Source: a virus
Strand: one strand, 5' to 3'
Virus record (IMG/VR): IMGVR_UViG_3300045988_083627
Coordinates: 1 to 52,269 of that record
DNA: 52,269 bases
Positions 4,786 through 42,817 of this stretch are shown here, in pieces. The position numbers and the translations under genes were made by a program. How positions within the stretch are numbered: the stretch's first letter is position 1; each line of letters opens with the position of its first letter. The notes beneath the pieces were generated by a model, which was not told the DNA's origin, did not search any database, and saw nothing but the letters and a program-made list of their open reading frames with translations.

Positions 4786-4806
4786 TTTCTTTCCTTTCTA
4801 ACTAAA

Positions 4807-5085: not shown

Positions 5086-5103
5086 AGCCTCTCGGTTACC
5101 ATA

Positions 5104-10667: not shown

Positions 10668-11058
10668 GAACGCATTTCCGCCTGAGCGGCACGGAGAATG
10701 GATCGACCTAGCGATTCCTGAAGCGGTCCATATGGAGCGAGGCGAGTTCCGCATCCTGCCGTTCAACATCTCGATGAAGCTGCCTGACGGATATGAAGGC
10801 CATATCGTACCGAGGTCCTCAACGTGCAAGAACTGGGGATTGCTTATGGCTGACAGTATGGGGATCATCGAGAACGATTATTGCGGCGACGATGATGTCT
10901 GGGGCTTTCCTGCTTATGCTACGCGAACCGTCACTATTCCCGAGGGGACGAGGATCGCACAGTTCCGCATCGAGCGGATCATGGGTCCGATCAAGTTCGA
11001 GGCTGTGCCCACGCTTGGCTATGAGAATCGAGGCGGCTATGGCAGCACCGGAAAGTAA
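10627..11058 (+). CDS. dut: dUTP diphosphatase (dUTPase), GTG start
   Basis: Motif III GIIENDYCGDDD and motif V RGGYGSTGK; AAAGGGAG ribosome-binding site before the GTG. Confidence 0.85.
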   Translation: MKQKEQTIQIRYGKNAFPPERHGEWIDLAIPEAVHMERGEFRILPFNISMKLPDGYEGHIVPRSSTCKNWGLLMADSMGIIENDYCGDDDVWGFPAYATRTVTIPEGTRIAQFRIERIMGPIKFEAVPTLGYENRGGYGSTGK

Positions 11059-11805: not shown

Positions 11806-12120
11806 ATGCCTATTACAAAGATCAATTCATACGACTCTGACGAGGTGTTTAAGCAGAAGTGCAACGAGAACTTCTCGGACATCAACGCCAGAGTCGTTTC
11901 GCGTACTAGTTCTTTACCGGGCTCTACAGTTGGTTCCACAGGGTTCGGCAGCTTTAACGACGTATATCCTATAGGTTCGGTAATTTGCACTACGAAATGG
12001 GCGGAAGACAAAGACAGTCGACTTCAAATTGGCACATGGCGTTATTTAGGATCAAGCATATTTGATGCTAATAACTCGAAAGTTTCTTATCCTGTGCAAT
12101 TCTATGAAAGGATCGCCTAA
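11806..12120 (+). CDS. hypothetical protein (104 aa), first gene of the low-GC cassette
   Basis: GGAGGAG ribosome-binding site before the ATG. Confidence 0.5.
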   Translation: MPITKINSYDSDEVFKQKCNENFSDINARVVSRTSSLPGSTVGSTGFGSFNDVYPIGSVICTTKWAEDKDSRLQIGTWRYLGSSIFDANNSKVSYPVQFYERIA

Positions 12121-14051
12121 TGGGAGTTTGGGACACCATCTTAGATCCATCAACGCTTCTCGCATCGATAAATGAAAAGCTTCTAGATAAAGCTGATAAC
12201 TTTAATCCGGAAAACTTTTCTAAAGATACCAAACAAAGAACTGAAGTTCAAAATCAATTAGTCAGTTCATACGGTAAACCTGATATGCCTGAAGATGTCG
12301 CTATGACCAGGCCGACAGTCATCAAGCCGTTAATCCCAGATAGCATCAAGAGCACAAAAGAACTTGATGAGCTAACTAAATATATGCCTTATGATGTTAA
12401 GTATTCAACTAGAGATAACATCATGCGAAACGGTGGAAATTTAAGCCCTGATGTTCAAAGTCTAGTTGCTCAGTATAGAGAGCCTCAAAAGAACTGGCTT
12501 GAGCAAACTGCTCCTAAAGCTGATGTTATTGCTGATCCTGAACACGAAGGCAGAGTCAGTTTCAATTATTCTGACTTAGATGAGTATGCGAACAATGCAG
12601 TAATGGATCCAGATACCGGGTTGTATCAAATGGCTCCTACACCAGGTAAAGGCGCCGAGCAATTGAACGATAAGATTGCCGAAGGTGTTCATTCTTTCTA
12701 CAGGACTGTTGGTCGGATGCCAACGATTGCCGCTAATCAAATTTGGGGAGAGCCTGAGTATGCCTATAACATGCCATCGGGAAATAGGGCAACTATTGAA
12801 GACTTGAATAATTTCGAAGGACTTATGAACAATAGTTCTTATCTTTTGGCAAAAAATGAGAATGATGAGACTCAGCTATATGACGATCCAGAAAATGCGT
12901 ATCTACAGTTGCCTAGTGGAAACTGGGTTAAGACATATGATGCTGATGAAAATTTCCTTCCTAATGTAAATTATGGAAACTCAATTGATGACACCACACT
13001 TACCTTCAATGATTCCGATGATGTTCTTCCACTTAGAGACTTTTTGGATATCGAGGAAAATCAGCAATATGGAAAGCCAGTTAAAGATTGGGAGGAGCAG
13101 CAGATTCCAGAAGAGCTTCTCCCTAACTCTAATATAACTTGGTCAGAGCTTCTTGATCTCTACGGAAACAAGGACTATACGCCGACTCAGCAAAATCTTG
13201 GCTTCATGAATCTGAACAAAGAGCGCGTAGCAAAATCAGGAGAAGACAACGGAAGTTCTCTCGATAAGATTAAGGACGCACTTCCTGAAGATTTACTTGA
13301 AGGAGACATAAGCGGAGTCCCCAAATGGTTTGCCGACGTCGGGGCCTCATCGCTTCCTTATATGCTAGGACCAATTGGTATAGTCAATGCTCTTATATCA
13401 GGTTCAGCTGATTCCTATCTAGCCAGTCGTGGAATTGATCCAAACTCGTACGATCCCGATACGAGAACTTTTGAAGAGCCGAACGAGGAAACTAATTTAC
13501 AACGAGGACTTAGATCAGCCGGAGCCTTCATAGATCCGACTATTGATGCTTTCGTTGGTGTCGGTAGTGCTAAGCTAGCAAAACATAAAACTCTCCGAAA
13601 TTTCGAAAAAGCAATTCAGGGAGACGAAAAAGCCTTGAAGAACATTGTCAAGGAGCAAAAGAAGATGGACTATCCGATAGTTCCATTGCTGAAAGATAGC
13701 TTAGCTGAAGGCTGGGAAGAAGTACCGGGGCAGTATTTGCAGCATTTAGGAGAGGTTAGTCCAGAGAATGCTGGTCTCAATAAGAACGAAGATGGATCAT
13801 TCGACGAATCGACACCGCTCCAAGAAAGAATTGCAAACGAAGTTTTTGGACATATGGCACCAGATTTTCTTGGAGGAGCACTTTTTGGTGGAGCCTTGGG
13901 CGCAAGAAAACTTCCAGCTGCTATTATGAAAACAAAAGATTCTATGAAGACCAAAAAAGAAAAGTTCAAGGATTATCAAGAAGGAACTGAGGATCGGAAT
14001 CTATCTCCTGCTATTTATCAAACCTTGAAAGATTTAGAGAAAGAGGAATAA
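12120..14051 (+). CDS. large virion/internal (ejected cargo) protein candidate, 643 aa
   Basis: TAATG coupling; low GC; Gly-rich hydrophobic C-terminal segments; sits immediately upstream of the RNAP-like giant gene. Confidence 0.55.
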   Translation: MGVWDTILDPSTLLASINEKLLDKADNFNPENFSKDTKQRTEVQNQLVSSYGKPDMPEDVAMTRPTVIKPLIPDSIKSTKELDELTKYMPYDVKYSTRDNIMRNGGNLSPDVQSLVAQYREPQKNWLEQTAPKADVIADPEHEGRVSFNYSDLDEYANNAVMDPDTGLYQMAPTPGKGAEQLNDKIAEGVHSFYRTVGRMPTIAANQIWGEPEYAYNMPSGNRATIEDLNNFEGLMNNSSYLLAKNENDETQLYDDPENAYLQLPSGNWVKTYDADENFLPNVNYGNSIDDTTLTFNDSDDVLPLRDFLDIEENQQYGKPVKDWEEQQIPEELLPNSNITWSELLDLYGNKDYTPTQQNLGFMNLNKERVAKSGEDNGSSLDKIKDALPEDLLEGDISGVPKWFADVGASSLPYMLGPIGIVNALISGSADSYLASRGIDPNSYDPDTRTFEEPNEETNLQRGLRSAGAFIDPTIDAFVGVGSAKLAKHKTLRNFEKAIQGDEKALKNIVKEQKKMDYPIVPLLKDSLAEGWEEVPGQYLQHLGEVSPENAGLNKNEDGSFDESTPLQERIANEVFGHMAPDFLGGALFGGALGARKLPAAIMKTKDSMKTKKEKFKDYQEGTEDRNLSPAIYQTLKDLEKEE

Positions 14052-14054
14052 ATT

Positions 14055-17000
14055 ATGGGAGGCTTTAGTCAAGACACTCATGTCAATGAAAATTTGGTAG
14101 GAGCAAACCGAGAGCAAAATCAGGGAAATGCTCTTGAAAATATAGTTGAGTCAGAGGCTAACAAAAAAGTACCGACTCTTGATGTTCAGGTTCCTGAAGC
14201 TCAACCTCAGGCTCAATCGCAACCTCAAGCTCAACCTCAAGCTCAGCCCCAGGCACAACCACAGCCTCCAGCTCAGCCTCCCATGTTCTTTTCTGAGGCC
14301 GATTTTCAGTCGTTTATGGATAAAGCGAATAGTATCCAATCGGCAAGAAGAGAAGAGCCCGTCGATCAAACCGAAGATCAAACACAAGGATTCCTTCGTC
14401 CGTCTGTCGTAGCAGAAGGAATGCAATCAAGCAATCAAGTCCTTTCTGAGGATGAGTTCAATAAGCTCACTCAGGATACCAATAAGAGTCTTGCTGGAGA
14501 TAACAGTCTTGAGCAATACGAATGGAAAGGTCTTCCAGAAGAGACTCGCCAAGCGATTATGAGTGGAGGTTTTCTTACCGGTGACAAGCAGATGGATCAG
14601 ATGCTTATCAACGGATATGCCTCCAAGTGGGCAAATGATCAAGCAAACAAAGCATATGCGCAGATTACAAATGCTCAGCTTGAAAGAGATGCTGCTGCTG
14701 GACACGCCGAGTTCTTGGCGGCTCAAGAACAAAGCGATGCAGAAAAGGCTGCTGAAACAAAGAAGAACAACGAGGACCTGATCATCGCTGGTACATCAAA
14801 TCAAAGAGTCTCTGGTCCTAAGACTTCTATTAGTAATCGCGCTCTTGCAAATTCCGTTGAAGTTCGTAAATCCCAGCTCGAACGATCCCTTGATGATTAT
14901 TCTGAAATGGGTAACGAAGTTCATGCTCAATTGTCTGATAATCATTCAGTGCCGATGGATTCGGTTGGTGTAGGTATTGATTTGCTGATGGCGGCTTATC
15001 TTAATGGTGGAAAAGATATTCGTAATCTTGTTGAAAAATACACAGGATTAACTCCCGAGGATTTATCAGCCAACATCCATGAACTACGATCGGCTCTGTA
15101 CAAAACGTTTTCTTACAAGAACCAAATCAGAGTTCCGACAGCTAAGTATCCTGTATCCGAAGACCCATCTGCACAATCCCGTATTATTATTTGTCATTCA
15201 GGGCAAGGTATTTATGTCCATCCTATTGTCCATAAACAGTATAATGCTGACTTCGACGGCGATGAGATGAACGTTGGATTCGATGAGGAGCGAGGCGCTT
15301 CGATTAAAAAGGCTTCAGACTTCTTCCTTTCCTCAGCTAATAAAGCTTTGTTTGATCCGAGCTTTTTTGGGATGAAAAGAATCTTTGATCCAAAGAGTTT
15401 AGGCAATGATTTCACAATGGTGCTAAAAGAGAAGGATATTGTTAATTTGGTATCCAGTTTCTCTGTAACTTATTTTGACCAAAATTTTAACAATGAACTA
15501 ACTTTCAAGATTTCTAATGATGAAGCGAAGAAGATTGCTCGTTTGGTCAATGAGAATTATCGTTATCAGATCGAAGCGGCTCAAGGAAAAAACGTTGAAG
15601 AACGTTCGATATGGGAAGATCTCATGAGAGAGATTACGAACTATGCTTACAACAGTGTAGCTCTTCCTTATGCTGACCAGGTAGCTTGTCGAATTTTGGA
15701 AAAGCTATACAACCTTTCTTACGATGTGAGAATCTTTGATGCTACTGTACTTGATTACAACAATCAGTATATGGGACCAATGGTTCCCGATCAGTATTCT
15801 ACTGACGATTTGAAACCGATCGAGGTATCAGTACCTGATCCTCCTACAAATTTCCTTGATTTGATGGAGGCTTTCGGGATGCCGATTGGGCGCCGCGAAG
15901 GTAAAAACGTCATCTTCCGTATTACTTCTAATTTTGGTAAAGAGATCAAATCAATCATCGAGACGGCTGCCGATCCTTCTGGATGGATCTCGCCGAACCA
16001 ATGGAAGTCTGTTACTGACGAAGTGTTCACCAAGATGATGTCCAGCAGGATTAGCCATGGTGATAGAAAAGTTGCCGTAAATGCCTATATAAGAAGCAGG
16101 GTCATTAGAGAAGTTGGTGTTCCTAACTTTGGTCTTATCCGCCAAGTTTCGGCGGATGGTGTTGTTACTCAGCAAGGATTTGAGGAGTGGATCAATAACT
16201 TCGCAGCTGCCTACAATAGGATGGCTAACGTCGTAAATGCTGCAAACAGTCAGTTTACTACAGACTTGAAGATCATCAACAAAACTGGTATTGACTATAT
16301 TAAGACAATCAATGTTGATGAGTATGGCACTCCTCTAACTCTTAATGAACTCGCTTCTCCGTTCCTTAAAGTTTACGGTGAATACAAGATGGATCGCCTA
16401 TTTGGTGCCATTTCTATCAAAGCATCCAAACGAGCAGAAATGGCCGAGGATTGGCGTGATTGTTATAACCCGGCAATACACGGTCAGTTCACTTTAGCAC
16501 GATGGATTCAAGTAACTCGCTATGCTTCTGGATCTGTTACTGATAAAAAGGGGATGAACAATGTAAGTCCCAAAGCTGGCCCTGAGACTTTTATTCGAGT
16601 GCTGGCTAATCTTCGTTCAAGTTATGCTTCTCGATTCAACAAGCAATTGGAGGATGCTTTAGATAAAACCGCAAAGCAGCTTCGATTCTTTACCAAGTCG
16701 AACCTTATCAACAATCCAGATTATGTAGCAATATCTGAGGCTATGGCTAACAACCTTATGCTATTGGGTCCAGAAGTCTTTGAATATTTCGGTCTCAATA
16801 CGCTCGATGGGTTCAGGTTCAGTACCTTTGGTCAAGAGCTATTGAATTGCGTAAAAGCTCAACCAGGTTACTCTATGGATCCGAACAAGGCCGCCGATAG
16901 GCTTGGCGGTGTCTGGATGAAGATAATGGCTGCATATAGGCTTGATCCGATTATGAGAGATAAGGCTGCCTGGATTAAAGCGAAGAACACTCCTGGAAAA

Positions 17001-20000
17001 TCAGTCAAAGAAATTGCTAAGTTGAAAGAACGTTGGGAGTACAAACTGCAAGAGCTGGCATCGTCTTCCGATCTTTGGAAAGCTTTAGTCCTTGACTTTC
17101 AAAATAACGGCAATGCCATCAATGAGATTCTCCTTGGCAATATGGGAATGAAAGAGAAATGTGATAGACTCGTTTCCCTTATCGGTAAATCGGCCCCTGG
17201 ACGTGTTGGATCCGATATCGACAGGAATCGCCAAAGCTGGGAAGTCCCCTCTATGTTGGTAGCAAATCCAAGAACCTTGACTATGAACAATATGTATATG
17301 ACCGATTTGGGTCATGGAGCTTGGTTAGATAACTTGAGTGATCTTAGTGATCGAATGGATGGATTCGTAAGCAAGAATCTTCTTGATATAAAACGAGACG
17401 TTAAGAAAACAATGACGTACTGCCAAAACAACGGTGTAAGCATCAGTGAGTATTTCTATGACGTGGCATCTGGAAAAGTTCAGATTTCCGTTTGCGATGT
17501 AAACACGTTAGCTAACGGTTTTGTTGCCGGTATTACTCCTACTTACAAATCGACTGAAAAGGGACAAAAAGAAGCAGCAGTTAATCATGGCTACAATACC
17601 GTTTCACTAATTGAGAATGGTGATGTCTTCTCCGATCTGGCTCAATGCGATGATGCTTATTTCAATAAGATTCCTGTAGACCGGCTGATTCGTAATCAAG
17701 TTATGTTGGTTAAAATTCTTACTGACCCAACGTTTTCCGTTGACATTTATGCTGGCGACTCTGATCCGACTACTATCAACCAAGAAGTCCTTTTTGGTCA
17801 TGTTTATCCTTCTGATGAAGAGATCTGGAAATTTTTGTTCAAACATGAACGTCTAGCGATGATGCTTAGGAAGACTTCGTTTAGCTCCAGTTATGATGGT
17901 GAAAGCACTTACAAAGCAGCATCGACGTTGCTAAGCACGATGCAGTCTTATAGTTCTCCAGATTTTCAGTCTGAGGAGTTGTTCAATCGAGCTCTTAATG
18001 CAGTTATCGATAGACCTTCTTTCCAGGCTGTTATGGCTATGTTCATCCCGGTAAAGGGTCAAAAAGGTTACAATGTTGCCCAGATGTACAAAGATAGAAT
18101 CGAATCTGTCATCAAGGGTATTGCTATGCTCGATGGTTTTTCGTATCAAGATATCAGGGCCAAGCTTGATGAAATCGCTCCAGAAATAGAAAACTTCAAA
18201 GAAGTAATCAATGAAGGAGATCTTAATAGGGATTATGGACTCATTGGTCCAGGCCAGCTACTCGATGAGTTTGCTGAGGCTCTTGTCGAGCTTTCTTCCG
18301 ATCTGCATAAGGCTGGAGTTGTTGACGAACTAGGAGAGTCATCTCTGTCCTGGGACGACATCATCTTTGAACCACAGAACCTGATCAACTTCCATAATCA
18401 GAAGCAGCTTTGGAGTGGAGCTAAAACAGCTACTTCAGTTGGTATCAACGGAGCAGAATCGCAGAGAAACGCAGCAATGGGCTGGCTTTCTACGGATGCC
18501 GGGAAAATCGAAGATTGCGGTGGTGGTACAACAACAAGAGTCTCGCTTGAGGAGGTTCAAGAAAACATCAGTGATTACAGAGGAGCTCATACTGTTTCTG
18601 GTATGGAAATCAATTCTGCAACCATTTATGATATTCAACCCGATCAAGATGGAATGATTGAGATTGTGGACAACTTCTCCTGCGAGAGCAAAGGTTGTTG
18701 CTGCCTTAAACACCAGACGGCTGATGCAACTTCGAATGAAGGTACACAAAACCAAACTACAGCTCATGGAGCCTATCTCGGAATCCTTCGTTCTGAAGGC
18801 GCTGAAGGTGGAAACCTTAAAGCAGTGTCGAACCCAGACGGAGTCGACTCCATTATCAAGATTCACATAATGGATGACTACATGAATGGGCAGTTTGAGC
18901 AGATTAAAGACAATGTCACCATACTTGCCGAGACTGGTGCAATTGGAGAAGCTCGAAAGATGCTGGCTAAATCTATGCAGGAGTGGAACTATAGCTGTGG
19001 ATATGATCAATTAGGTCTTCAGGATTACTACAATCTAGCGCACCTGCTCATCAGGGAAACAGAAGATGGTGTTCGTATTGTTTCGGTTGAGCAGTTGAAT
19101 CAGATTATTTCTGAGATTTCAATTCGGCTTCAGAAAGATCCTAAGTTCAAACCAAAAGATGATGACTGGTCGGTGGTATTAAACGAAGCTCTTGAGAACT
19201 GGAAGCCAAGAGGTAAAGTTGATATCGAGAAGGTACTCAACATGATCGAGGTTCCAAGTGTTTCGAACGTTTACAATAAAGGAATCTATCCTTATCTGTC
19301 TTCGTTTGACCGAAACGTTATGCTGATGGATGAGCTGACTGATAAGTATTTCCAACGAAATCCTAATGCTCGTGCATATTCGAAATATGAGCTTGATAAG
19401 ATCGCTCTGGCAATGGAGCAGAAACACTATAAGACTCCATTTGCTGCTTATGTTAAGTCTCATAAATACATACCAGCCAAAAAGAACAACAAGAAGAATA
19501 CCGCTGAAGATCAGAACGATAAAAACAAAAACGAAAAAGAGATGGCGAAGAAAAAGGAAAAAGGAAAAGTTATCGAGAATTATTATAAGAATACCTATCG
19601 ATTCTTTGGGTATTGTTCGTTGAATAATCTTGATTACACCGAGTATCCTGGTCCCAATATTGCTTGGGTTGTCGACAATTCGGCATCTCCTTCCGATGTT
19701 GAGAAAATGATTGAGATAGCAAAACTTAACGGAAACACTGTCTTTTTTGAAGAAAAGCTTCGCCTGGATTCTCAGGAAGTTATTTTCGATGAAGTTCAGA
19801 ATGGGTATGCTCGAATCAACTTAGGAGATAAAAAGGGTAGAGGTTACGTAGTTTCCTTCTTCGATCTCCAGTTGAACGGTCCGGCAAATCCTGAAGGATC
19901 TTTCAATGTCGGCGAATCGCGTTTTAGGCCAGAAGAGCTTGCTAGGTTTGTTTCTGATGAGCTTAATGAAAACAGAAACGGTGATGCTGGCCTTACTGTT

Positions 20001-21407
20001 ACAGAACACTATGCCAATCGTCAGAGAGTTCGAGCAACGAAACGCGAGGAGTTCTTCTGTCAGAATCTGTTTAGAGAACTGATAGATGATGGTATGTTCA
20101 ATTTCTCCGTAAGAATAGCCTCTGTCGCAGATATTAGGCAAATGCTTGAATGGGGACAGAATGGTGGTCCGGGATTCTGTATTGGAGTTGACCCTGATAA
20201 GTACCCTAAGGAGAGGGATCGCTTTTACGAAGCTGTTGCTAGATATTTAGCAAGACTTGATGAAGTATATGATGACGGGTTCCTACCTAGTGCTAGACCC
20301 GATGATATTATCGGATGGGCTATTGCTACAAAGGTAAATAAAGCTGGAGAGGCAGAAGATTACTGGGCCCCCATCCGCGCCTTCGACATCTATAGAGGCG
20401 AGGGCTCGTTCTCGGAATTTGACGTTGATTCGGTAGAATCACATATCAACGAGCGAGGATCTATTGTGGTCAACTACTCTATCGACACGTCGGTGCTCCA
20501 TCATCAATTCAAAATTTTCCAGGATGGTATGGCATCTAACAAGCTAACAAGCGATGGCGAGCCCATGGAAGATCGTCAGTTGAAAAATGGAACTTACCTC
20601 GATGGATACTTTAGCAAGGAATCTACTGAATCAAGAGAGTTGCTTTTGGCTAAAACAAATCCTATATCGACTCTTATGTGGGAATCCCGCCTTGAACCTT
20701 ATCTGTATAATCTTGCTGAGCTTACGGATACCTTCCCTAATAATCCAGACTTGAAGCAAAAGCTATTGAACGGCGATCAAATCACTTTTGATGAATGGAA
20801 TAAGTTCCTAGATAACGATGGAGCATTCTTCTCTGAGGCTTATATTTGGAACAATCCCCAGTGGGGTGATCAAGGTTCGGCAATTATGAACGCCTTCCTT
20901 AAACAAACTTGCCAGAAACTTATGAAGTGCGGAGTTGATCCAGCTACCTTCCTAAGTTCGAGAAACCAAACAGAAGGTCCAACTTACAAGTTCTTCAATT
21001 GGAACATCATGTATAAATCTTCCAACGCTTTCAAAGATTGTATGCTGGCGTTTCATCATTCGATGAATCCGTATCTCTGTCCTGAATATAGCTTAGCTGA
21101 ATACAATGGAGAACTGTTCAACGGTGAGCTTATGGTAGAAACCCCATTCAGAGGAACAGATGGAAAGATTCACTATCGTTGGCAGTATATGGTTACTGGT
21201 CTGCATTTCCTTGATTCTCATTTTGACTCAATGACTGGATTGGCTACTACCGGTAAAGTTTTCAGCGTACCCTCTTTGAACGCTATGACCCTTGGAGGCA
21301 GACCGTTGCGAAAAGATGAAGTTCCATATTATCTTGATTGGCAGAATAGAAACAGAAATGAAAATCAATCTGACGTATTTATTACTACAGATACTGATAT
21401 TCTGTAA
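14055..21407 (+). CDS. giant (2450 aa) virion RNA polymerase-like protein with a double-psi beta-barrel catalytic motif NADFDGD (crAss-like vRNAP / YonO-type)
   Basis: HKQYNADFDGDEMNVGFD matches the universal beta-prime Mg-binding motif; also VKGQKG; 7.35-kb uninterrupted ORF. Confidence 0.75.
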   Translation: MGGFSQDTHVNENLVGANREQNQGNALENIVESEANKKVPTLDVQVPEAQPQAQSQPQAQPQAQPQAQPQPPAQPPMFFSEADFQSFMDKANSIQSARREEPVDQTEDQTQGFLRPSVVAEGMQSSNQVLSEDEFNKLTQDTNKSLAGDNSLEQYEWKGLPEETRQAIMSGGFLTGDKQMDQMLINGYASKWANDQANKAYAQITNAQLERDAAAGHAEFLAAQEQSDAEKAAETKKNNEDLIIAGTSNQRVSGPKTSISNRALANSVEVRKSQLERSLDDYSEMGNEVHAQLSDNHSVPMDSVGVGIDLLMAAYLNGGKDIRNLVEKYTGLTPEDLSANIHELRSALYKTFSYKNQIRVPTAKYPVSEDPSAQSRIIICHSGQGIYVHPIVHKQYNADFDGDEMNVGFDEERGASIKKASDFFLSSANKALFDPSFFGMKRIFDPKSLGNDFTMVLKEKDIVNLVSSFSVTYFDQNFNNELTFKISNDEAKKIARLVNENYRYQIEAAQGKNVEERSIWEDLMREITNYAYNSVALPYADQVACRILEKLYNLSYDVRIFDATVLDYNNQYMGPMVPDQYSTDDLKPIEVSVPDPPTNFLDLMEAFGMPIGRREGKNVIFRITSNFGKEIKSIIETAADPSGWISPNQWKSVTDEVFTKMMSSRISHGDRKVAVNAYIRSRVIREVGVPNFGLIRQVSADGVVTQQGFEEWINNFAAAYNRMANVVNAANSQFTTDLKIINKTGIDYIKTINVDEYGTPLTLNELASPFLKVYGEYKMDRLFGAISIKASKRAEMAEDWRDCYNPAIHGQFTLARWIQVTRYASGSVTDKKGMNNVSPKAGPETFIRVLANLRSSYASRFNKQLEDALDKTAKQLRFFTKSNLINNPDYVAISEAMANNLMLLGPEVFEYFGLNTLDGFRFSTFGQELLNCVKAQPGYSMDPNKAADRLGGVWMKIMAAYRLDPIMRDKAAWIKAKNTPGKSVKEIAKLKERWEYKLQELASSSDLWKALVLDFQNNGNAINEILLGNMGMKEKCDRLVSLIGKSAPGRVGSDIDRNRQSWEVPSMLVANPRTLTMNNMYMTDLGHGAWLDNLSDLSDRMDGFVSKNLLDIKRDVKKTMTYCQNNGVSISEYFYDVASGKVQISVCDVNTLANGFVAGITPTYKSTEKGQKEAAVNHGYNTVSLIENGDVFSDLAQCDDAYFNKIPVDRLIRNQVMLVKILTDPTFSVDIYAGDSDPTTINQEVLFGHVYPSDEEIWKFLFKHERLAMMLRKTSFSSSYDGESTYKAASTLLSTMQSYSSPDFQSEELFNRALNAVIDRPSFQAVMAMFIPVKGQKGYNVAQMYKDRIESVIKGIAMLDGFSYQDIRAKLDEIAPEIENFKEVINEGDLNRDYGLIGPGQLLDEFAEALVELSSDLHKAGVVDELGESSLSWDDIIFEPQNLINFHNQKQLWSGAKTATSVGINGAESQRNAAMGWLSTDAGKIEDCGGGTTTRVSLEEVQENISDYRGAHTVSGMEINSATIYDIQPDQDGMIEIVDNFSCESKGCCCLKHQTADATSNEGTQNQTTAHGAYLGILRSEGAEGGNLKAVSNPDGVDSIIKIHIMDDYMNGQFEQIKDNVTILAETGAIGEARKMLAKSMQEWNYSCGYDQLGLQDYYNLAHLLIRETEDGVRIVSVEQLNQIISEISIRLQKDPKFKPKDDDWSVVLNEALENWKPRGKVDIEKVLNMIEVPSVSNVYNKGIYPYLSSFDRNVMLMDELTDKYFQRNPNARAYSKYELDKIALAMEQKHYKTPFAAYVKSHKYIPAKKNNKKNTAEDQNDKNKNEKEMAKKKEKGKVIENYYKNTYRFFGYCSLNNLDYTEYPGPNIAWVVDNSASPSDVEKMIEIAKLNGNTVFFEEKLRLDSQEVIFDEVQNGYARINLGDKKGRGYVVSFFDLQLNGPANPEGSFNVGESRFRPEELARFVSDELNENRNGDAGLTVTEHYANRQRVRATKREEFFCQNLFRELIDDGMFNFSVRIASVADIRQMLEWGQNGGPGFCIGVDPDKYPKERDRFYEAVARYLARLDEVYDDGFLPSARPDDIIGWAIATKVNKAGEAEDYWAPIRAFDIYRGEGSFSEFDVDSVESHINERGSIVVNYSIDTSVLHHQFKIFQDGMASNKLTSDGEPMEDRQLKNGTYLDGYFSKESTESRELLLAKTNPISTLMWESRLEPYLYNLAELTDTFPNNPDLKQKLLNGDQITFDEWNKFLDNDGAFFSEAYIWNNPQWGDQGSAIMNAFLKQTCQKLMKCGVDPATFLSSRNQTEGPTYKFFNWNIMYKSSNAFKDCMLAFHHSMNPYLCPEYSLAEYNGELFNGELMVETPFRGTDGKIHYRWQYMVTGLHFLDSHFDSMTGLATTGKVFSVPSLNAMTLGGRPLRKDEVPYYLDWQNRNRNENQSDVFITTDTDIL
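14195..14285 (+). repeat. tandem 12-nt repeat encoding (QPQA)n near the N-terminus of the giant RNAP-like protein
   Basis: The unit caacctcaagct is repeated about 6 times. Confidence 0.7.
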
Positions 21408-21430
21408 CAAGCAAGAGAAGGAGAAAAACT

Positions 21431-24400
21431 ATGCCCGGTAAGATGAGCGATGCGGTAAATGCAGCTATATCTAAATTAAATAATCAAAAAGGTAGTATTG
21501 GAGATATTACTACTGATAAAGGTTTTAATCCAAATGACCATGCATTCGACGGCTCAGATATACTTGCCGAGGTTTTGCGTAGGCATCAAGAAGGAGCTGG
21601 AGGGAGCAATGCCGGCGTAGCTCCTGATGCAAGCGCTCCTAAAATTGAGGCAGAAGCTGCAAAAAAACCAGTGGTTCATTCTACTGAGGAAAAGAAGCAA
21701 GCAACAGATTCAAAAGAAACTGACAAAGAATCAGATCGTCAAAATGAAGCTATCAGGCAAGACGATCATCAAGCTAACAATGATGAATCTGGGTTGGCTC
21801 CTAAAGTACAAACCTCCGAAGGGAGAGCTAGAGGAACCAGCTATCAAGATGCTGGTAGCAGTACGGCTCCTCCATCTGTTCCAATTCTTAAACCAAGAAC
21901 AACACCCGAAGAAGGATCTGATGACTTTGTTGGGCCGGTTAAGAATGTTGCTGCTTTAAGAGCATATGCACAGAGGCAGGCAGAAAAAGCCAAAAAGACG
22001 GCTCCAGCTACAGCTCCAATGACTGAAGACTTGCGCAAGAAGATTGCTGAAGCTGTTGCGAAAAAGTCGGGATATAAGAAAATGGGTCAAAAAACCCAAG
22101 ATTATATGAACCGTCAAGCTTTGACCGATGCCAAAAGAAAGCAACTTGTCGCTCAAAGGAAACTTGATAAGGTAATGGGCGATAAAGAAAATTCAGCAGC
22201 AAAACCGAAGCAAAGGTTTAATTTCAACAAGCTATCGGACTTGATGAAAGAGAAAACGAATAAAGACAAATCTAATGAGGTCGGACTCTCTAAGGACGAT
22301 TTAGAGCTTTTTAGTGTCTTTCAAAACGGCAAAATCATCGCTACGAAGATTCGCCTGAAACAAAACGAGAATGATCCAGAAATAGTTAAGGATGCTAAGA
22401 AAGCTACAGAGGTAACTGTTCCTTACAAAATTTCCTCTAATGCTCTTATTAATGAAGAAATCCTTAACAAGGTTGAGTCAAAATACCAGAAGAATATCGA
22501 CGAACTTTGGCAGACGATGGAAGACGACATGGAAATCAGAACTCGATCTAACGCCGAGAGGAGAGCTGAAGAGGCATCTCAAGCAGTTGCTGAAAAAGAA
22601 GAGAAGCTTACTGGTAAGAAGTCAGAAGCAGAATTCAATAAGTATGAACCCAATCTTTCTTATTTGAAAAATGTAGGAAAGGTTCAAGAAGAGGCACCTC
22701 AAGCTAGGGATGTTCCGACTAGCAAAATTGCGGACAACTTGAAAAACGAAGATACGCAAACTGATACAGCCATTGATTGGCTTCAAAACAACGTAGACAT
22801 CGGAAGTGTTGAGGTTAAACATAACCGAGATGATGAGGTATCAAAACGTACAAAAGCCATCAAAGATTCCTTCAGAAAAGGTTTTGGTGTTAAGTCTGAT
22901 GTAAAAGTAGAAGTAAACGTAGATCAAGCAAAAGAATATCTGCAAGCAAATACTGGAGCAGCAAAAGGCACAATTCGAATTCCTGGGTTGATGTCCCGCA
23001 AAACCTATGAAGGGATCAAAGAGCAAGGCAAAGACGAAGCCAAGAAAAAGAAAGAGAAGATAAAGGCTGCTCAAGACAAAAGAGTCAGTATCGAGAATCA
23101 GATCCAGGACATCAAGGCAAAGATCAAAGAAGCGAAAGAGAACACAGAAAAAGACGAGTTTGATAACGCCCAGATTTTCACATATGGAGCTCGACTTAGC
23201 GATCTAACAAAACAGAAGAAAAAAGCTGATTCCGAATACTTCAGCTTGGTCAACAACGGTAAGTTCAAGGGAGTGAAATTTACTGGTGTAGCAAACAAAA
23301 AATTCAATGAACAATTGAAGAACAAAAAAGCAGACAACAAGAAAGACGACAAAGATACAAAATCTTCTTCCAGAATTTATTGGAGCCAAAAGAAGAAAAA
23401 AGAAGAACAAGCCAAAAAGAATCAAATGAAAACAGTTACTTTGCATGATGAAACTTTTGAGCAAGAGTTAGTTTCTGCTTGTAGATTCTTCGGCTGGGAT
23501 CCGGAAGATGAATCTAAAAGAACTCTCGCAATGAAGTGCGCTGTTCTTTACTGCGGTATTTGCATTGATCGAAAAGGTAAGTTGTTTGATAAGAAGTTCA
23601 ACAATTATTACCTTGACGATAAAGTCTACATCGACGCATGGAATCAAATGAAAGCAAACCAACAAGCGCATGGGTTTCCTTTTCTCTATGCAAATACTAA
23701 TTATAAAATTGGTGGAAACTATCGCTTCCCCATGACCATGATGTCACCTGATATCTTAATGGCACTTACTCAAAAGGGAGCATTACTTGAAGGCTGGACT
23801 CCTTATGCTGTGGCAAAGCGAGGTTATAACGAGTTCTTGAACAAAGTAGCGCCTGCCATGTCAGTCAATGCAAAAGAAAATCAGAGACAGGTTATGCAGG
23901 ATCTCTTCCAGTTTGTTGCAGGTGAACTCGGCGATGCTCATCTTGATTCAGGTATAGCTCCTCGCGATTACTTCTCGATTAACGAGGCTTTCGATCCTTT
24001 GAACGATTATGCGATGCTGTTCCCGAATACCGAGGAACTTGTGCGCAACAATGAAAAGTGCAGACAGCGAGCATTAAGAGCTCAAGATAGAATTCAGTCG
24101 AAGAACACCAGAACAGTCAAAGGCGCCGATGGTTCATATCGAACCCTCAGAGACATTGCCATCAACTGCCCAGACGTCTTTGCAGAGGTAGTCAAAGTTC
24201 AGCGCGCTCAATCCCTTATCTTCGATATCACACTTGGAGCATCTTCTGCTCTTGAGCATTTGAAAGGAAATTTCTCTAACTCAATGGCGGCAAAACTCAT
24301 GCTTGCTGATATCGGAAAATCAGGTCCAACTGCTGCGACTTACGAGATTGCTAAAAGTAAAGAGTTCCAAGATATTCTTTTCGACGCCGTCCATCTACTC

Positions 24401-26986
24401 CAAATCGGAGGAAAGGATGGATTAAACTTTGCCATTTCCCAAGGATATACACTTGGCAGAGGAGACGCTCGGGAATACGCTCGAAAATTCCTTGTGTCAA
24501 AGGGTTTGTCGGAGAAGGAATCTGAGGATTACTTGAACATGTCCCCGGCAGAGCAAGCTGCTTTCCTGAAGCAGAACCAAGGAAAAATCCAATTGTGGAT
24601 TAACCGATATTCGGATTTTGCTGCTAATTTCGCTACCGGCGAATGGGTTTGCAAGGGAGGAGACTCTAAACGCTTTGTCGAGTTCCTTGCATACAATACC
24701 CAGAAATATGCAGACCATGGTGGAATGAACATAACTCCAGAACAAATGGAGCGAATGCTCATGCAAAACCCGCAGCAAACCATCACGCAGTTGATGCTTA
24801 GGCCCGAGGGGATGAACTCTCTCGTTATGACGATGGACTCCACTATTGGTGGAGTGAATCCTTTTACTGATTTTTGGGATGAGTTCATGGCTCGAAAAGG
24901 AATAGCAGATATTGCTTTTGCAAACTTTGTAACTTTGTTCCCTAAGTATGGGTTCATGGCAATAGGCAAGATCATGCCAATGTCTCATACCGGTATGTAT
25001 CTCGCATCAAAGGGATACTATGCAACGAAGTCAATGCTAATGGGCGGTGTTAAAGCTGGAGATATTCACGAAGCAGATACGAAGGATCGTCTTGACACCC
25101 TTATCGGAGGCAATGATTCTTTCATTAAGGGCTTGATGCAGAACGTTATTATGGACTTTGCCCAGCTTGGAACAAACGTAATGATGTTCCTTATCGAGGT
25201 TGGTTTCCTTTTGCTTACCGGAATCAAAGAACCTCCTGAGGACGACAAGAAATATGTTTACGAAGAGTGGAGACTGTTCACGAACATCATAGACGGCGGT
25301 GTTGCTATCAAACAAAACTGGTACCTCAATGAGTTCTTTGGAATCATCGGCGGTCCTGCTGCCGTGGCTGCTGCTGGAGCACTTGCTGGAGCAAGCTCTG
25401 ACGTTGCTTTCAAAACGTTCAAGTCTGGAACCTATGAGGTAATGATGAACACTGGTGTTTCCCAGGTTACGAAATTCTGCGAATGGATTACCGACTTTGA
25501 TCAATCTATGGTCATGGCACAGATCGACGGAAACAACAGCAACAGGGCTATTGGTGGAGACTATCTAGCCAATCAGATCCTGCTGACTTTTGCAAAGGGA
25601 GCTGTAAGCACTATCGAGCCTCGATTCATCAAGACTCTTTATAGTTCTCATTTCTTTGGTTCTCAAGATAACCTCGCGCATTCGACATCTCAAGTTTACG
25701 ATCCCGAATCGGAAGATGGAAGAACTATTCCAACGACGATGATTGACAGCATGATTCGTAGGTGGACCTACAATGACCCTGGTGCTGCCTTGGTTATGAA
25801 CACCATCACAGGAAACTGGTGGAACGAGGATGCAACTGGGTATCTTCGTGAGCAAATGCCTCTGATTACCGAGACTGATCCGACAAGTTCTATCTGGCAA
25901 AAACGATTCAGCGAAGTAGATGGAAGGGAGATTACCTGGGACTCTTCTGATGAGGATAAACAGATTGTAGTTGATCGCGTCCTTGATGCTTACAACACTT
26001 ACGGAGGTATTCAAGGCATGGTAAATGCGGGTATCGTTGTTCCGTACGTTACTCGATACTACGTAACTTCTTACCTTCAGGCTCAGAAGAACGCCAACTG
26101 GAATGCTCATTATGAGAGACAATACTCCCGAGGAGGATTCTCTTCTAATGAGGAAAAGGAAGCTTCGGTTGAAAACGTACAGAAGAGCAATGCAGCTCTC
26201 GACCAAAAGATTCAAGAATTCAAAGATAGTAAGCTTCCTTATTCAGCCTACAAACTTCATCGCTATGAAACTGATTACTGGAAAAACTATTATGCAGAAA
26301 ACGAAAATGGAGAGCGAGAGTATCTAACTCCCGATGAGTACCTTCTCAGAAAGCTCTCCGGCGACGACTCTGTTGTTAGAAACAACTACGCATCAGGCGA
26401 TCATAAGTCGGGACTGCCTCCTTACCTTATGGTTGACAATGATGCTGCTAGTAACTCTTTGGCGCCTTGGTATAACAAGGAAGCTGGGTTTGATCGAGAC
26501 CAGCTCCTCTCTGACATCGGAAACGAGAAGATAGAATTTGGTCAGAATAAGGGAAAGACTCTTGCTGAAACAATCGGAGCAGGCGACGGTGAGTGGGCTC
26601 CGACAACAGGTTCTCGTTCCAATGTTTCTGTAAAGAACCCGTTTAGCAACGATTATGAATGGCCTAAGCAATCAGACCCGAATCTTTTCACTGGAAACCT
26701 TGGCGAGAACGGCAAGAATAAAACCAGTGACGAATGGAAGCAGTCGAACAAATCCGGCACTAATGGATCGTCGGCTGGTTGGGGATATACTTCATCTCGT
26801 AGATACAGCAGATCTGGCGGATCTAGCCGAGCAGCTTCTCTCTACTCTCACCCGGCTTCTAGCCTCAGCACTGATCGACCTGTTACTATGTATAGCAAGA
26901 ACAGAAACTACACGAGGTACGATTACCTGCGTCCCGACTTCGAGACCAAGGGTAGCCGCGATGCTTACAAGAGATCGGATATCTAA
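21431..26986 (+). CDS. giant (1851 aa) virion protein; Lys/Glu-rich coiled-coil N-terminus, predicted TM segments, Ser/Arg/Tyr-rich C-terminal tail; candidate ejection or channel-forming cargo protein
   Basis: AAGGAGA ribosome-binding site; hydrophobic segments NVMMFLIEVGFLLLTGI and GIIGGPAAVAAAGALAGA; stop overlaps the portal start (TAATG). Confidence 0.6.
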   Translation: MPGKMSDAVNAAISKLNNQKGSIGDITTDKGFNPNDHAFDGSDILAEVLRRHQEGAGGSNAGVAPDASAPKIEAEAAKKPVVHSTEEKKQATDSKETDKESDRQNEAIRQDDHQANNDESGLAPKVQTSEGRARGTSYQDAGSSTAPPSVPILKPRTTPEEGSDDFVGPVKNVAALRAYAQRQAEKAKKTAPATAPMTEDLRKKIAEAVAKKSGYKKMGQKTQDYMNRQALTDAKRKQLVAQRKLDKVMGDKENSAAKPKQRFNFNKLSDLMKEKTNKDKSNEVGLSKDDLELFSVFQNGKIIATKIRLKQNENDPEIVKDAKKATEVTVPYKISSNALINEEILNKVESKYQKNIDELWQTMEDDMEIRTRSNAERRAEEASQAVAEKEEKLTGKKSEAEFNKYEPNLSYLKNVGKVQEEAPQARDVPTSKIADNLKNEDTQTDTAIDWLQNNVDIGSVEVKHNRDDEVSKRTKAIKDSFRKGFGVKSDVKVEVNVDQAKEYLQANTGAAKGTIRIPGLMSRKTYEGIKEQGKDEAKKKKEKIKAAQDKRVSIENQIQDIKAKIKEAKENTEKDEFDNAQIFTYGARLSDLTKQKKKADSEYFSLVNNGKFKGVKFTGVANKKFNEQLKNKKADNKKDDKDTKSSSRIYWSQKKKKEEQAKKNQMKTVTLHDETFEQELVSACRFFGWDPEDESKRTLAMKCAVLYCGICIDRKGKLFDKKFNNYYLDDKVYIDAWNQMKANQQAHGFPFLYANTNYKIGGNYRFPMTMMSPDILMALTQKGALLEGWTPYAVAKRGYNEFLNKVAPAMSVNAKENQRQVMQDLFQFVAGELGDAHLDSGIAPRDYFSINEAFDPLNDYAMLFPNTEELVRNNEKCRQRALRAQDRIQSKNTRTVKGADGSYRTLRDIAINCPDVFAEVVKVQRAQSLIFDITLGASSALEHLKGNFSNSMAAKLMLADIGKSGPTAATYEIAKSKEFQDILFDAVHLLQIGGKDGLNFAISQGYTLGRGDAREYARKFLVSKGLSEKESEDYLNMSPAEQAAFLKQNQGKIQLWINRYSDFAANFATGEWVCKGGDSKRFVEFLAYNTQKYADHGGMNITPEQMERMLMQNPQQTITQLMLRPEGMNSLVMTMDSTIGGVNPFTDFWDEFMARKGIADIAFANFVTLFPKYGFMAIGKIMPMSHTGMYLASKGYYATKSMLMGGVKAGDIHEADTKDRLDTLIGGNDSFIKGLMQNVIMDFAQLGTNVMMFLIEVGFLLLTGIKEPPEDDKKYVYEEWRLFTNIIDGGVAIKQNWYLNEFFGIIGGPAAVAAAGALAGASSDVAFKTFKSGTYEVMMNTGVSQVTKFCEWITDFDQSMVMAQIDGNNSNRAIGGDYLANQILLTFAKGAVSTIEPRFIKTLYSSHFFGSQDNLAHSTSQVYDPESEDGRTIPTTMIDSMIRRWTYNDPGAALVMNTITGNWWNEDATGYLREQMPLITETDPTSSIWQKRFSEVDGREITWDSSDEDKQIVVDRVLDAYNTYGGIQGMVNAGIVVPYVTRYYVTSYLQAQKNANWNAHYERQYSRGGFSSNEEKEASVENVQKSNAALDQKIQEFKDSKLPYSAYKLHRYETDYWKNYYAENENGEREYLTPDEYLLRKLSGDDSVVRNNYASGDHKSGLPPYLMVDNDAASNSLAPWYNKEAGFDRDQLLSDIGNEKIEFGQNKGKTLAETIGAGDGEWAPTTGSRSNVSVKNPFSNDYEWPKQSDPNLFTGNLGENGKNKTSDEWKQSNKSGTNGSSAGWGYTSSRRYSRSGGSSRAASLYSHPASSLSTDRPVTMYSKNRNYTRYDYLRPDFETKGSRDAYKRSDI

Positions 26987-28947
26987 TGGACAAAGAGCTT
27001 AAGTGGAACATCGACGTTGAGAAGATTAAAGACAAGAGGCTTTCAAAAGTAAAGGCTCGATATGATCAAGCTCGCTCGCAGATGATGCAGCGCACGTATC
27101 ATCACGAGCTTTACGGTCTGCTTGCGAAGAACAAGTCCATCCATCAGTGGTCTACGAAGAAAGGCCAGAGCAAATACTTTAGCGAAGGGTCTACCCAGTA
27201 CATCCTCCGCAAGGTGCTCGCTGATACCATTCAGCGTATGCCCGACGGAGAGCTAACCACGCAGTACGACAAGTCTACGTGGCAACACGTGATCACCCAG
27301 TATCTGTTTGAAAACAAGGTGATGTGGTCGGAGTACGAGGGAATCGACATGCTCTCGAACTTCACCAATACCTTCAAGATGTCGTTCATCTATGCCTTCG
27401 CTCCTGTACGGACTGGCTTCGAGAGGGATGTCGATGGAGATATCCGAATCTCCTACAACCTGGAGAACTGGGCGGACGTCTTTGTTGATCGAGACTGTCG
27501 AGACATCCGCCGACCAGCTGTCGTCTACCATCGCAGCTACCTCTCGAAAGACCAGGTGGAGGAACTTCTCAATGAGGACGGCTCGGTTAAAGACTCGTCC
27601 TATTGCGAGGATACTATCAAGTACATCCTCGATCATGATATGTTCGGTGCTAAGCAATGGGAGTCTGAGAAGCTTTCCGATAAGATGAAGAACTCCACGG
27701 CGCTTCAATCGATCGAGCTTGTTACAGAGTACAAGCGCGGAGCTTCTGAGTTCGTCACGTTTGTTCCTGGACTCAATGCTCCGCTTCGCAAGGTGAAGAA
27801 CTATGACCCTCGCAAGGGTCTGCCGTGGAACTTCTTCGTCCTGGAGCCTGACCCCGACTTCCCGCTTGGAGTCAGCCAGGTTGAGTTTCTCCTATCCGAT
27901 CAGCAGTTCAACGATCTGTTCCAGACCAGTGCCTATAAGAATCTGCTCCTCGCAATGGAGCCGCCTATCATGGTGTCTGGTTGGGAAACCAATCCGTCGT
28001 CCTATGTATTCGAGCCTCGTCGAATCTGGAACCTTGGCAACAATCCGAACCAGGTGAAGGTAGATCCGGTCAAGATCGACAACACGGTTCTCAACAATTG
28101 GACGACCACACGCGAGGCTGTAGCCTCCTCGATGCTCCGCAACCTGAATGTCATGGACGGCACCATCGCGAAGGACTCCGGCACATCGTTCTCCAAGACG
28201 GCTCCTGGCGTGAAGGCTCAGCAGGAGGCCAAGACCATCAATATCAACCAATATCAGAAGAGGCTTGAGAATTTCATCTCGCAATGGGCTACCCAAGCTC
28301 TTCAGATGTACATCTCTGCAATGGGTGGCGAGCATGACATCACCGTCGATGAGGCGACAAGACGCCGTCTTTTCGATATCGGATGCGACGATATGATCAC
28401 CATCGATGGCAAGGTCACTGTTGATTTCGATGAGCTGTCTGCAAACCAGCTTCGCTATCAGGTTCGCGTGGGCTCTCTGGTTCAGCTCAAGGAAGACCAG
28501 GAGCGTGCAGCGCTTTCCGAAGTTGCGCAGCCGTTTGTGCAGAACCTCAACGGATGGTCTGAAGAGAACCGCAAGGTTATCGAGAACGAGGTACTGCTAC
28601 CGATTGCTAAGCGACTGCTCGAACTGTCCAACGTCGATATCGCTCAGACGATGGCTGACAGTCTGTCCACGCAGATTGCGAAGACTATGATGGCCGACAT
28701 GCAGAATCAGATCGACCAGCAGGGTGCCGTGCAGCAGCAGCAAGGACAGCAGATCGCAGACATCCAGAACCAAATGCAGGAGCAACCCGGGGCCATGCCC
28801 CAGGAGCCCATACCCGAGGGATCTCCTTCGGGATTACCACCGGTCGAGGGCGAGGCTCTATCGCCAGGTGCCGAACCCTCACCGACCAGTTCAAGTGAAA
28901 CCCCAGGTCAACAAGTAGTTTCTCCTGAGGATTTGCTTGAATTGTAG
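26986..28947 (+). CDS. putative portal protein (653 aa, Gln-rich acidic disordered C-terminus)
   Basis: Position immediately upstream of the capsid gene; size and C-terminal tail are portal-like. Confidence 0.5.
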   Translation: MDKELKWNIDVEKIKDKRLSKVKARYDQARSQMMQRTYHHELYGLLAKNKSIHQWSTKKGQSKYFSEGSTQYILRKVLADTIQRMPDGELTTQYDKSTWQHVITQYLFENKVMWSEYEGIDMLSNFTNTFKMSFIYAFAPVRTGFERDVDGDIRISYNLENWADVFVDRDCRDIRRPAVVYHRSYLSKDQVEELLNEDGSVKDSSYCEDTIKYILDHDMFGAKQWESEKLSDKMKNSTALQSIELVTEYKRGASEFVTFVPGLNAPLRKVKNYDPRKGLPWNFFVLEPDPDFPLGVSQVEFLLSDQQFNDLFQTSAYKNLLLAMEPPIMVSGWETNPSSYVFEPRRIWNLGNNPNQVKVDPVKIDNTVLNNWTTTREAVASSMLRNLNVMDGTIAKDSGTSFSKTAPGVKAQQEAKTININQYQKRLENFISQWATQALQMYISAMGGEHDITVDEATRRRLFDIGCDDMITIDGKVTVDFDELSANQLRYQVRVGSLVQLKEDQERAALSEVAQPFVQNLNGWSEENRKVIENEVLLPIAKRLLELSNVDIAQTMADSLSTQIAKTMMADMQNQIDQQGAVQQQQGQQIADIQNQMQEQPGAMPQEPIPEGSPSGLPPVEGEALSPGAEPSPTSSSETPGQQVVSPEDLLEL

Positions 28948-42782: not shown

Positions 42783-42817
42783 AAAGCCCTCGGAAAACCG
42801 GGGGCTTTCTTGTTTTA
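42783..42817. terminator. bidirectional rho-independent terminator between the convergent endolysin (+) and terminase (-) genes
   Basis: AAAGCCCUCGG-aaaa-CCGGGGGCUUU forms an 11-bp stem with a G-U wobble, with U-tracts on both strands. Confidence 0.75.

Follow-up and report, generated by a model that had tools for sequence, protein, structure and literature searches.

Few phage systems are known to eject an RNA polymerase, namely N4, the crAss-like phages, the Thermus phage P23-45 and the phiKZ-like jumbo phages. In phi14:2, a crAss-like phage, gp66 (PDB 6VR4) is a single-chain two-barrel enzyme of 2180 residues, encoded beside giant virion proteins, which is packaged, ejected and transcribes the early genes (10.1101/2020.03.07.982082). 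The virion RNA polymerase (vRNAP) gp50 of N4 (Schitoviridae) is a giant single-chain podovirus polymerase that is expelled with the ejection proteins gp51 and gp52, which form the envelope-spanning channel (PMC13434306), while gp96 of P23-45 is a two-barrel RNA polymerase fused to the tape measure protein and delivered with the DNA through the tail (PMC10770324). Here we analyzed a stretch of viral DNA of 52,269 nucleotides (IMG/VR record IMGVR_UViG_3300045988_083627, positions 1 to 52,269; the window), which encodes a 2450-residue protein that is, on balance, probably a packaged and ejected two-barrel RNA polymerase of the cellular type with two ejection partners. Since single-chain two-barrel RNA polymerases and repeated subunit fusions had already been described (PMC7281927), as had ejected polymerases, the kind of enzyme is not new. 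What is new is the family, the predicted β′-first order of its modules, its presence in podoviruses with genomes of about 52 kb, and the explanation that it offers for the giant gene of the Microbacterium and Arthrobacter podoviruses of cluster EK (Eekayvirinae) and Burrovirus (hereafter EK/Burro phages).

The cassette considered here consists of three plus-strand open reading frames immediately before the portal gene:

12120..14051, plus strand: gene A, first of the cassette, 643 residues, presumed ejection or internal virion partner.
14055..21407, plus strand: giant RNA-polymerase-like protein, a single chain of 2450 residues with a β′-like barrel near the N-terminus and a predicted β-like module in the C-terminal half.
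21431..26986, plus strand: gene C, 1851 residues, presumed membrane-inserting ejection protein with a Lys/Glu-rich N-terminal third and a conserved C-terminal body.

A first-pass annotation of the window had described an RNA polymerase Mg-binding motif in the 2450-residue protein, a cassette of 643-, 2450- and 1851-residue proteins upstream of the portal and capsid genes, the use of Shine-Dalgarno sites and a transmembrane character of the 1851-residue protein. All four descriptions held on closer analysis. The motif stands at residues 397-403, in a barrel that resembles β′ as a whole; the position of the cassette agrees with the coordinates and with the matches of the downstream genes to phrog_332 and Arete gp29; of 38 genes checked, 25 have a Shine-Dalgarno-like motif upstream; and gene C carries two hydrophobic segments.

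The 2450-residue protein's N-terminal part comprises three features:

14055..14894, plus strand: low-complexity N-terminal region of about 280 residues with PQAQ repeats, of low occupancy and conservation in the 117-sequence family alignment.
14907..15284, plus strand: DPBB-A, the β′-type catalytic double-psi β-barrel (DPBB), residues 285-410, located by hhalign alignment to an RpoC profile.
15243..15263, plus strand: NADFDGD with the Mg-binding triad D399/D401/D403, residues 397-403, a single pattern match.

The first 280 residues or so are probably disordered. The peptide HKQYNADFDGDEMNVGFD is found in the protein, and a degenerate NADFDGD pattern occurred once in the window and never in 100 shuffles. 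When the 117-sequence family alignment was compared by hhalign with a profile of 58 proteobacterial RpoC sequences, residues 285-410 aligned with E. coli β′ 348-471 (95% probability, E = 3.6e-8, 119 columns). Searches of the PDB, both by phmmer and with a six-sequence profile, returned only bacterial β′ chains at the NADFDGD site, with E values down to 4e-7. The Pfam model RNA_pol_Rpb1_2 matched residues 383-408 at 24.1 bits (E = 4.9e-5), slightly under its cut-off of 25.3 bits, and matched six of six family members tested. At the level of sequence, the likeness to β′ spans the whole catalytic barrel, beyond the heptapeptide, and the protein carries the DPBB-A with a DxDxD loop that marks the superfamily of two-barrel RNA polymerases. 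Bacterial RpoC shares both this barrel and the exact NADFDGD, which stands about 400 residues from the N-terminus here and at 458 in E. coli β′. The counterpart of N397 in E. coli β′, N458, contacts the ribose hydroxyls of the incoming nucleoside triphosphate. A first phmmer run had also aligned residues 2036-2090 with β′ 651-707; this match vanished at the profile level and was dropped.

Since only about 280 probably disordered residues precede the DxDxD barrel, any second barrel must come after it. The order is the opposite in gp66, QDE-1 and the P23-45 RNA polymerases, where DPBB-B stands before DPBB-A (PMC10770324). The C-terminal half of the 2450-residue protein contains the following candidates:

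18981..19130, plus strand: β-like segment, residues 1643-1692, aligned by hhalign (E = 0.006-0.12) to β 404-479, which has the DDIDHLGNRRxRSVGE block.
20298..20318, plus strand: PDDIIGW motif, residues 2082-2088, candidate for the β/Rpb2 GDILVGK strand before the flap.
20511..20636, plus strand: candidate DPBB-B core of β type, residues 2153-2194, FKIFQDGMASNK...LKNGTYLDGYFSKESTESR, with weak concordant alignments to β.

The invariant FK(2153)IFQDGMASNK(2163)...LKNGTYLDGYFSKESTESR(2194) resembles GDK(1065)MAGRHGNK(1073)...ENGTPVDIVLNPLGVPSR(1106) of β, so that the candidate barrel, K..NK...NG..D......SR, matches bacterial RpoB at 1065-1106, in addition to the second, colinear β-like block at residues 1643-1692. 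Three computations placed the best β alignment at residues 2160-2196, against E. coli β 1070-1108. With hmmsearch, the family hidden Markov model (HMM) aligned residues 2162-2194 with E. coli RpoB 1072-1106 (E = 0.08); with hhalign, a 30-sequence sub-alignment reached E = 0.016 at the same site against the single RpoB sequence, and comparison with an RpoB profile gave E = 0.018-0.035. The alignments begin at N2162/K2163, equivalent to β N1072/K1073, and pair R2194 with R1106, while K2153 is equated with β K1065 by motif spacing alone, outside the alignments. Control comparisons (reversed-profile and crossed) scored 16-21, versus 33 and 26-40 for the two β-like matches.

The PDDIIGW motif, whose G2087 is invariant in the six-sequence alignment, is a candidate counterpart of GDILVGK of β/Rpb2, as suggested by weak matches: a "GDIVPL" segment in the profile of the EK giant proteins aligned both to this family motif (E = 0.013) and to "GDILV" of β (E = 0.0086). 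A low-confidence model of residues 1251-2450 was also compared with the PDB using Foldseek. The top 15 matches were all Rpb2, RPC2 or Sulfolobus Rpo2 chains (best E = 6e-3, probability 0.98), with the non-virion RNA polymerase (nvRNAP) of PhiKZ and E. coli RpoB lower in the list. The K..NK motif lies about 290 residues from the C-terminus, versus about 270-277 in E. coli β, so that the distances of the two motifs from the chain ends resemble those in β′ and β. The signals for a second barrel are thus weak but repeatable, and we read the protein as a β′-like module followed by a β-like module because of the concordant β matches, the Foldseek result and the motif positions. A match between "GYNFAE" and "GYNFED" of β was out of order and was not used.

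Word-indexed searches with the 2450-residue protein and with the six-sequence profile found five relatives only, a whole-protein scan against PHROGs and a tblastn search of 50,697 phage records gave no match, and the family is without a Pfam or PHROG model. An exhaustive profile search of 1.84 billion representative proteins returned 354 matches at E ≤ 1e-3, of which 135 had E ≤ 1e-30; nearly all are full-length, with 2,200-3,000 residues, and the family comprises at least 135 clusters at 50% identity. We aligned 117 full-length relatives, which have a median identity of 21% to the window protein and are conserved over the full length except for the first 280 residues or so. K2153, K2163 and R2194 are present in all 117, the triad aspartates in 115-116, and N397 in 96; D399, D401, D403, K2153, K2163 and R2194 are kept together in 115 of the 117. 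Such retention of six residues at a median identity of 21% indicates a conserved active site rather than a relic.

Two shorter proteins returned by the search of representatives show an arrangement that is odd for the active-site loop of an RNA polymerase. The catalytic-loop segment (family HMM 326-382) occurs in three tandem copies in P0144 (1327 residues; residues 650-707, 739-796 and 828-885) and in two copies in P0146 (384 residues). Separately, IMG/VR contigs L096-L107 (11-428 kb, several of them 31-71 kb) encode proteins that are 26-39% identical to the window protein over 50-140 residues around the DFDGD barrel, and these may represent further unclassified families of two-barrel phage polymerases.

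The three-gene block beside the portal gene is a real conserved module. The order A (643-869 residues), polymerase (2311-2527 residues) and C (1562-1865 residues) recurs in six further contigs (L001, L005, L002, L003, L004 and L095) at identities down to 21-24%, with the portal gene next wherever the contig reaches that far. Gene A, in which no Pfam or PHROGs domain was found, matches its L004 counterpart weakly by BLASTP (1e-4), and a gene of 648-869 residues occupies its position in all related contigs. Gene C is more readily aligned with its L004 counterpart (BLASTP 1e-46 over residues 702-1851), and a Kyte-Doolittle scan (19-residue window, mean hydropathy ≥ 1.6) located its candidate membrane segments:

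25160..25390, plus strand: gene C, two candidate membrane segments, hydrophobic and rich in Gly/Ala, residues 1244-1262 and 1302-1320.

Natural fusions of the polymerase with C occur in P0114, P0124, P0148 and P0150 (3,997-4,850 residues). The gene order, these fusions and the segments of C show the polymerase encoded with structural genes and with candidate membrane-active partners, as is expected of ejected polymerases. The portal proteins of the window and L004 are 64% identical and their polymerases only about 22%, which indicates that the cassette changes far more rapidly than the portal, as is typical of ejection proteins. The G+C content of the cassette (0.40-0.45, about 0.42) is also lower than that of the adjoining structural genes (0.50-0.55).

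The last 20 residues or so of gene C (26927-26986), YLRPxFxTKGSRxAYKRSDI, are kept in L004 (18073-18132), in proteins that are otherwise 22% identical, and the EK/Burro giant proteins likewise end in a conserved basic tail, RRxxRRERFSSxxGRLNxxQ. These tails may serve as a packaging, portal-docking or processing signal. In L002, the polymerase gene is separated from the giant gene that follows it by a gene for a 153-residue NADAR-domain protein (9146-9607).

Genes outside the cassette connect the window to the EK/Burro phages:

26986..28947, plus strand: portal protein, 653 residues, overlapping the gene C stop codon; match to phrog_332 and tblastn matches to annotated portals.
29014..30801, plus strand: probable major capsid protein; Ig-like Big_2 domain at the C-terminus; BLASTP 2e-11 and 1e-9 to Arete gp29.
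42815..44344, minus strand: terminase large subunit; matches to PHROG terminase families and, by tblastn, to Microbacterium EK/Burro terminases.

In tblastn searches, the portal protein matched only Microbacterium and Arthrobacter podoviruses (58 phages, 25-27% identity, E = 1e-36 to 1e-42). The best terminase matches were to Microbacterium EK/Burro phages as well (about 30% identity, E = 2e-52), with further matches to Vibrio, Pseudomonas and Pelagibacter phages. Arete gp29 is a homologue of the capsid candidate of Burro (PMC7302621). The EK/Burro genomes, of 53-55 kb, consist of a leftward and a rightward arm, and their portal gene is immediately preceded by one gene of about 13.3-13.5 kb. 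Its products are among the largest viral proteins, are highly divergent and unlike the N4 vRNAP, and were left without an assigned role (PMC7302621); a report of March 2026 still called their function "elusive" (PMC13069448).

The five EK/Burro giant proteins that we examined have 4434-4494 residues, are 25-31% identical between groups and share an invariant K...DxDGD (K867, D872, D874, G875 and D876 in Arete gp27). Profile comparisons aligned parts of all three cassette proteins to them in colinear order:

Gene A alignment (five sequences), C-terminal end, profile columns 662-753: EK giant-protein profile 521-579, hhalign E = 0.0065.
Polymerase barrel, residues 358-525: Arete gp27 824-987, E = 0.0032.
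24074..26110, plus strand, gene C residues 882 to about 1560: Arete gp27 3551 to about 4250, hhalign 96.9%, E = 1.5e-10, 621 columns.

The EK giant proteins also showed weak colinear matches to β 779-884 and around β 1088-1108. By phmmer and hmmsearch, the window polymerase gave no match to Arete gp27, so that profile-profile comparison alone links the two. The three window genes appear to correspond to the single giant gene of the EK/Burro phages (Burro gp27, Arete gp27, Akoni gp31, TicTac gp33), which adjoins a homologous portal gene, is colinear with the cassette and carries DxDGD, but differs from it in being one fused gene instead of three, in its high-GC Actinobacteria hosts and in a GC content of about 60-65%, versus 47% here. 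In its portal, terminase, capsid candidate, cassette and two-arm genome of about 53 kb, the window phage is thus distantly Eekayvirinae- or Burrovirus-like, and because the identities are low it falls outside those genera and that subfamily. The first-pass annotation had considered its lineage new to systems of this sort. This was correct insofar as the polymerase nature of the giant gene had gone unrecognised there, but the portal, terminase, capsid candidate and cassette tie the window to podoviruses already in culture. Our literature search found no paper linking the EK/Burro giant gene to a polymerase. In NC_048860 (Arete gp27) and PQ184795 (MissAmericana gp30) the gene is annotated as a tape measure, which is very probably a misannotation in podoviruses.

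Compared with the cellular enzyme, the 2450-residue protein is a single chain, apparently in the order β′-then-β, without a counterpart of the N-terminal clamp/zinc region of β′; no alpha, omega or sigma partner was recognised in the window phage, and the remaining sequence is unrelated at the profile level. Compared with phi14:2 gp66, the differences are larger than the shared architecture suggests. Gp66 has DFDID at residue 1361, DPBB-B first and a QDE-1-type Connector, and belongs to a 100-kb genome with a Bacteroidota host. The catalytic motif lies at 16% of the 2450-residue chain (residue 397) versus 62% in gp66 (residue 1361 of 2180), and this position implies a reversed barrel order. 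In hhalign comparison of the 117-sequence family with gp66, the best alignment was off the motif (E = 0.66) and the DFDID region was not the top match, and the three giant neighbours of gp66 had no similarity to the cassette. Neither crAss-like membership nor a Crassvirales portal and terminase background was found. N4 gp50 differs in its T7-like (palm) fold, in genes located away from the portal gene and in a genome of about 70 kb. P23-45, with gp96 and gp64, is a siphovirus whose enzymes have DPBB-B first, are flat and clamp-less, and belong to a phage/plasmid/QDE-1 clade that is not near β′ (PMC10770324). By its residues, the active site of the 2450-residue protein is far closer to cellular β′, and the protein cannot be placed with YonO or QDE-1. 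The assignment to the crAss/YonO/QDE-1 kind in the first-pass annotation was thus not sustained.

An ejected virion RNA polymerase with partners, also proposed in that annotation, appears to be the best-supported reading, by analogy with the colinear giant protein that is virion associated in cultured relatives (PMC7302621). In this scheme, the β′-like barrel with NADFDGD would come first in the chain, and the two lysines and the arginine of the β-like module would hold the nucleotide and the 3′ end of the RNA. The polymerase would be made late, alongside the structural genes, and packed in the capsid beside the portal with the 643- and 1851-residue proteins. At infection, all three proteins would leave through the short tail. 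The 1851-residue protein would then enter the cell envelope via its hydrophobic segments and help to build a conduit, and the ejected polymerase would transcribe the first phage genes without need of the host enzyme, probably starting from the 1.25-kb non-coding region at 5920-7170. We infer that the enzyme makes RNA and not DNA. That it is packaged, ejected and active on early genes is proposed from the examples of N4, which is the closest working parallel, of the crAss-like phages and of P23-45, and from the Burro giant protein being virion associated. A more specific version is that an independently evolved β′-then-β fusion, amounting to a near-complete catalytic core of the cellular type in a chain with about 2,200 structured residues, is packed in a capsid of some 60 nm and passes through the tail of a podovirus, and that in the Microbacterium phages it is cut from a polyprotein of about 4,450 residues, with predicted processing sites near residues 570 and 3420 of Arete gp27; we regard this as a real possibility, just short of probable. 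Burro virions contain a protein of about 250 kDa, which was ascribed to gp27, either entire or as a processed portion (PMC7302621), and the 2450-residue module would have a mass of about 275 kDa.

Several results weigh against the proposed ejected polymerase. Taken one by one, the alignments of the second barrel are weak (E about 0.02), and a PDB profile search and Pfam scans with the 30-sequence alignment gave no match for that region. No bridge helix or trigger loop was detected in residues 404-1300, where hhalign against the β′ profile did no better than reversed controls. Two AlphaFold2 models from six-sequence alignments were poor (mean predicted local distance difference test score 36 and 40), and the barrel fold was not seen in them. 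The polymerase part is linked to the EK/Burro proteins at E = 0.003 only, with nothing by phmmer, and the Burro band of about 250 kDa was attributed without sequence identification (PMC7302621). The undetected bridge helix and trigger loop do not exclude polymerase function, because YonO, likewise without detectable homology there, is active (PMC5467207).

The 2450-residue protein could instead be an active two-barrel RNA polymerase that is not packaged but made after infection for middle or late genes, like YonO of SPbeta or gp64 of P23-45, the adjacency to the portal gene reflecting gene order only. Non-virion single-chain enzymes of this type are known (PMC5467207, PMC10770324), and the protein itself has no hydrophobic segment. 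We nevertheless consider this unlikely, as the gene heads the rightward arm with the structural genes and is directly followed by gene C and the portal gene, fusions to the membrane-segment-bearing C protein recur, the fused giant protein is virion associated in cultured relatives (PMC7302621), and a polymerase expressed from a late operon alone would be unable to start the transcription programme. A different chemistry is also conceivable, in which a mainly structural or ejection protein, of an inner-core, tunnel or DNA-translocating type, uses the barrel for DNA synthesis or priming, as in PolD, for RNA-templated synthesis, as in QDE-1, or for nucleotide hydrolysis that drives genome entry. 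Most of the 2450 residues have no detectable RNA polymerase counterpart, both a DNA polymerase and RNA-dependent polymerases are found among two-barrel enzymes (PMC7281927), and the window has a primase-like gene and no recognisable DNA polymerase. Against this stand the β′-specific Asn-Ala prefix of NADFDGD, with its asparagine in 96 of the 117 relatives, and the best profile and fold matches, which are to subunits of DNA-dependent RNA polymerases and not to PolD or QDE-1; we hold such a role to be quite improbable.

The horizontal transfer of a crAss-, YonO- or QDE-1-type virion RNA polymerase into a small phage would account for the superficial resemblance to phi14:2, where a DxDxD protein of similar length (2180 versus 2450 residues) has giant virion neighbours of 593, 1797 and 1421 residues. 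With no profile similarity to gp66 or these neighbours, an apparently reversed barrel order, and a portal and terminase without Crassvirales matches, this origin is very improbable. Finally, NADFDGD might be a chance or relic match in an inert giant scaffold or tape-measure-like protein, as the tape measure annotation of Arete gp27 and MissAmericana gp30 would imply. The relatives, however, are podoviruses with tails of less than 10 nm (PMC8281081, PMC13069448). Although highly diverged, 115 of the 117 aligned family members retain both the aspartate triad and the Lys/Lys/Arg residues, and the whole barrel, not the heptapeptide alone, aligns with β′. This last explanation is strongly disfavoured and, of all those considered, the one to which we give least credence.

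If the reading as an ejected polymerase is correct, the family would be the fourth sequence family of two-barrel virion enzymes and, among them, would have the active site most like that of cellular β′; its barrel order would be reversed, and it occurs in podoviruses of ordinary size, about 52 kb. It would give a concrete, testable function to a gene of more than 13 kb that makes up a quarter of the genome in dozens of cultured Microbacterium and Arthrobacter phages and was called unexplained from 2020 to 2026; the "elusive" 13-kb gene would then encode early transcription machinery. The prediction lends itself to direct tests, as the EK/Burro phages and their host, Microbacterium foliorum in the case of Burro, Arete, Akoni and TicTac, can be obtained freely, and these phages would offer a culturable and non-pathogenic model for how a polymerase of the cellular type is translocated and starts transcription without sigma factors.

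The remainder of the window is consistent with a complete phage genome. Both of its ends consist of the same 55-nucleotide direct repeat (1-55 and 52215-52269), and the sequence therefore represents a closed genome of 52,214 bp, either circular or circularly permuted; the repeat is most likely an assembler overlap. The rightward arm ends with a lysis gene:

42065..42778, plus strand: CHAP-domain (NlpC/P60-like) endolysin.

Together with the use of Shine-Dalgarno sites and the fact that the relatives infect Actinobacteria, this endolysin hints at a Gram-positive host. The replication-related genes include a primase-like DUF5906 gene, a dUTPase, a YqaJ-type exonuclease and an AAA ATPase (8432-9595, 10627-11058, 47495-48265 and 50335-51546). 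No DNA polymerase gene was recognised in the window; the EK/Burro phages encode DNA polymerase I. In the open reading frames scanned with Pfam and/or PHROGs, neither a further RNA polymerase nor a sigma factor was recognised.

Positions 5920-7170, where the leftward and rightward arms diverge, form a region of 1.25 kb without a convincing gene, which contains GC-rich palindromes at about 6460-6700 and is a candidate early-promoter or origin region. Rfam gave no match in the window, and sigma-70-like promoters were not enriched in the early region. On the minus strand, intergenic hairpins are found between the small leftward genes at 4064-4094, 4806-4834 and 5561-5588 (also at about 5066-5092). 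They have a common stem, GAGAGAGC...GCTCTCTC, for which a pattern search returned five matches at three distinct sites, with 0.25 expected. Two of these hairpins score as intrinsic-terminator-like; alternatively, they could mark sites of processing or act as signals to the phage polymerase.

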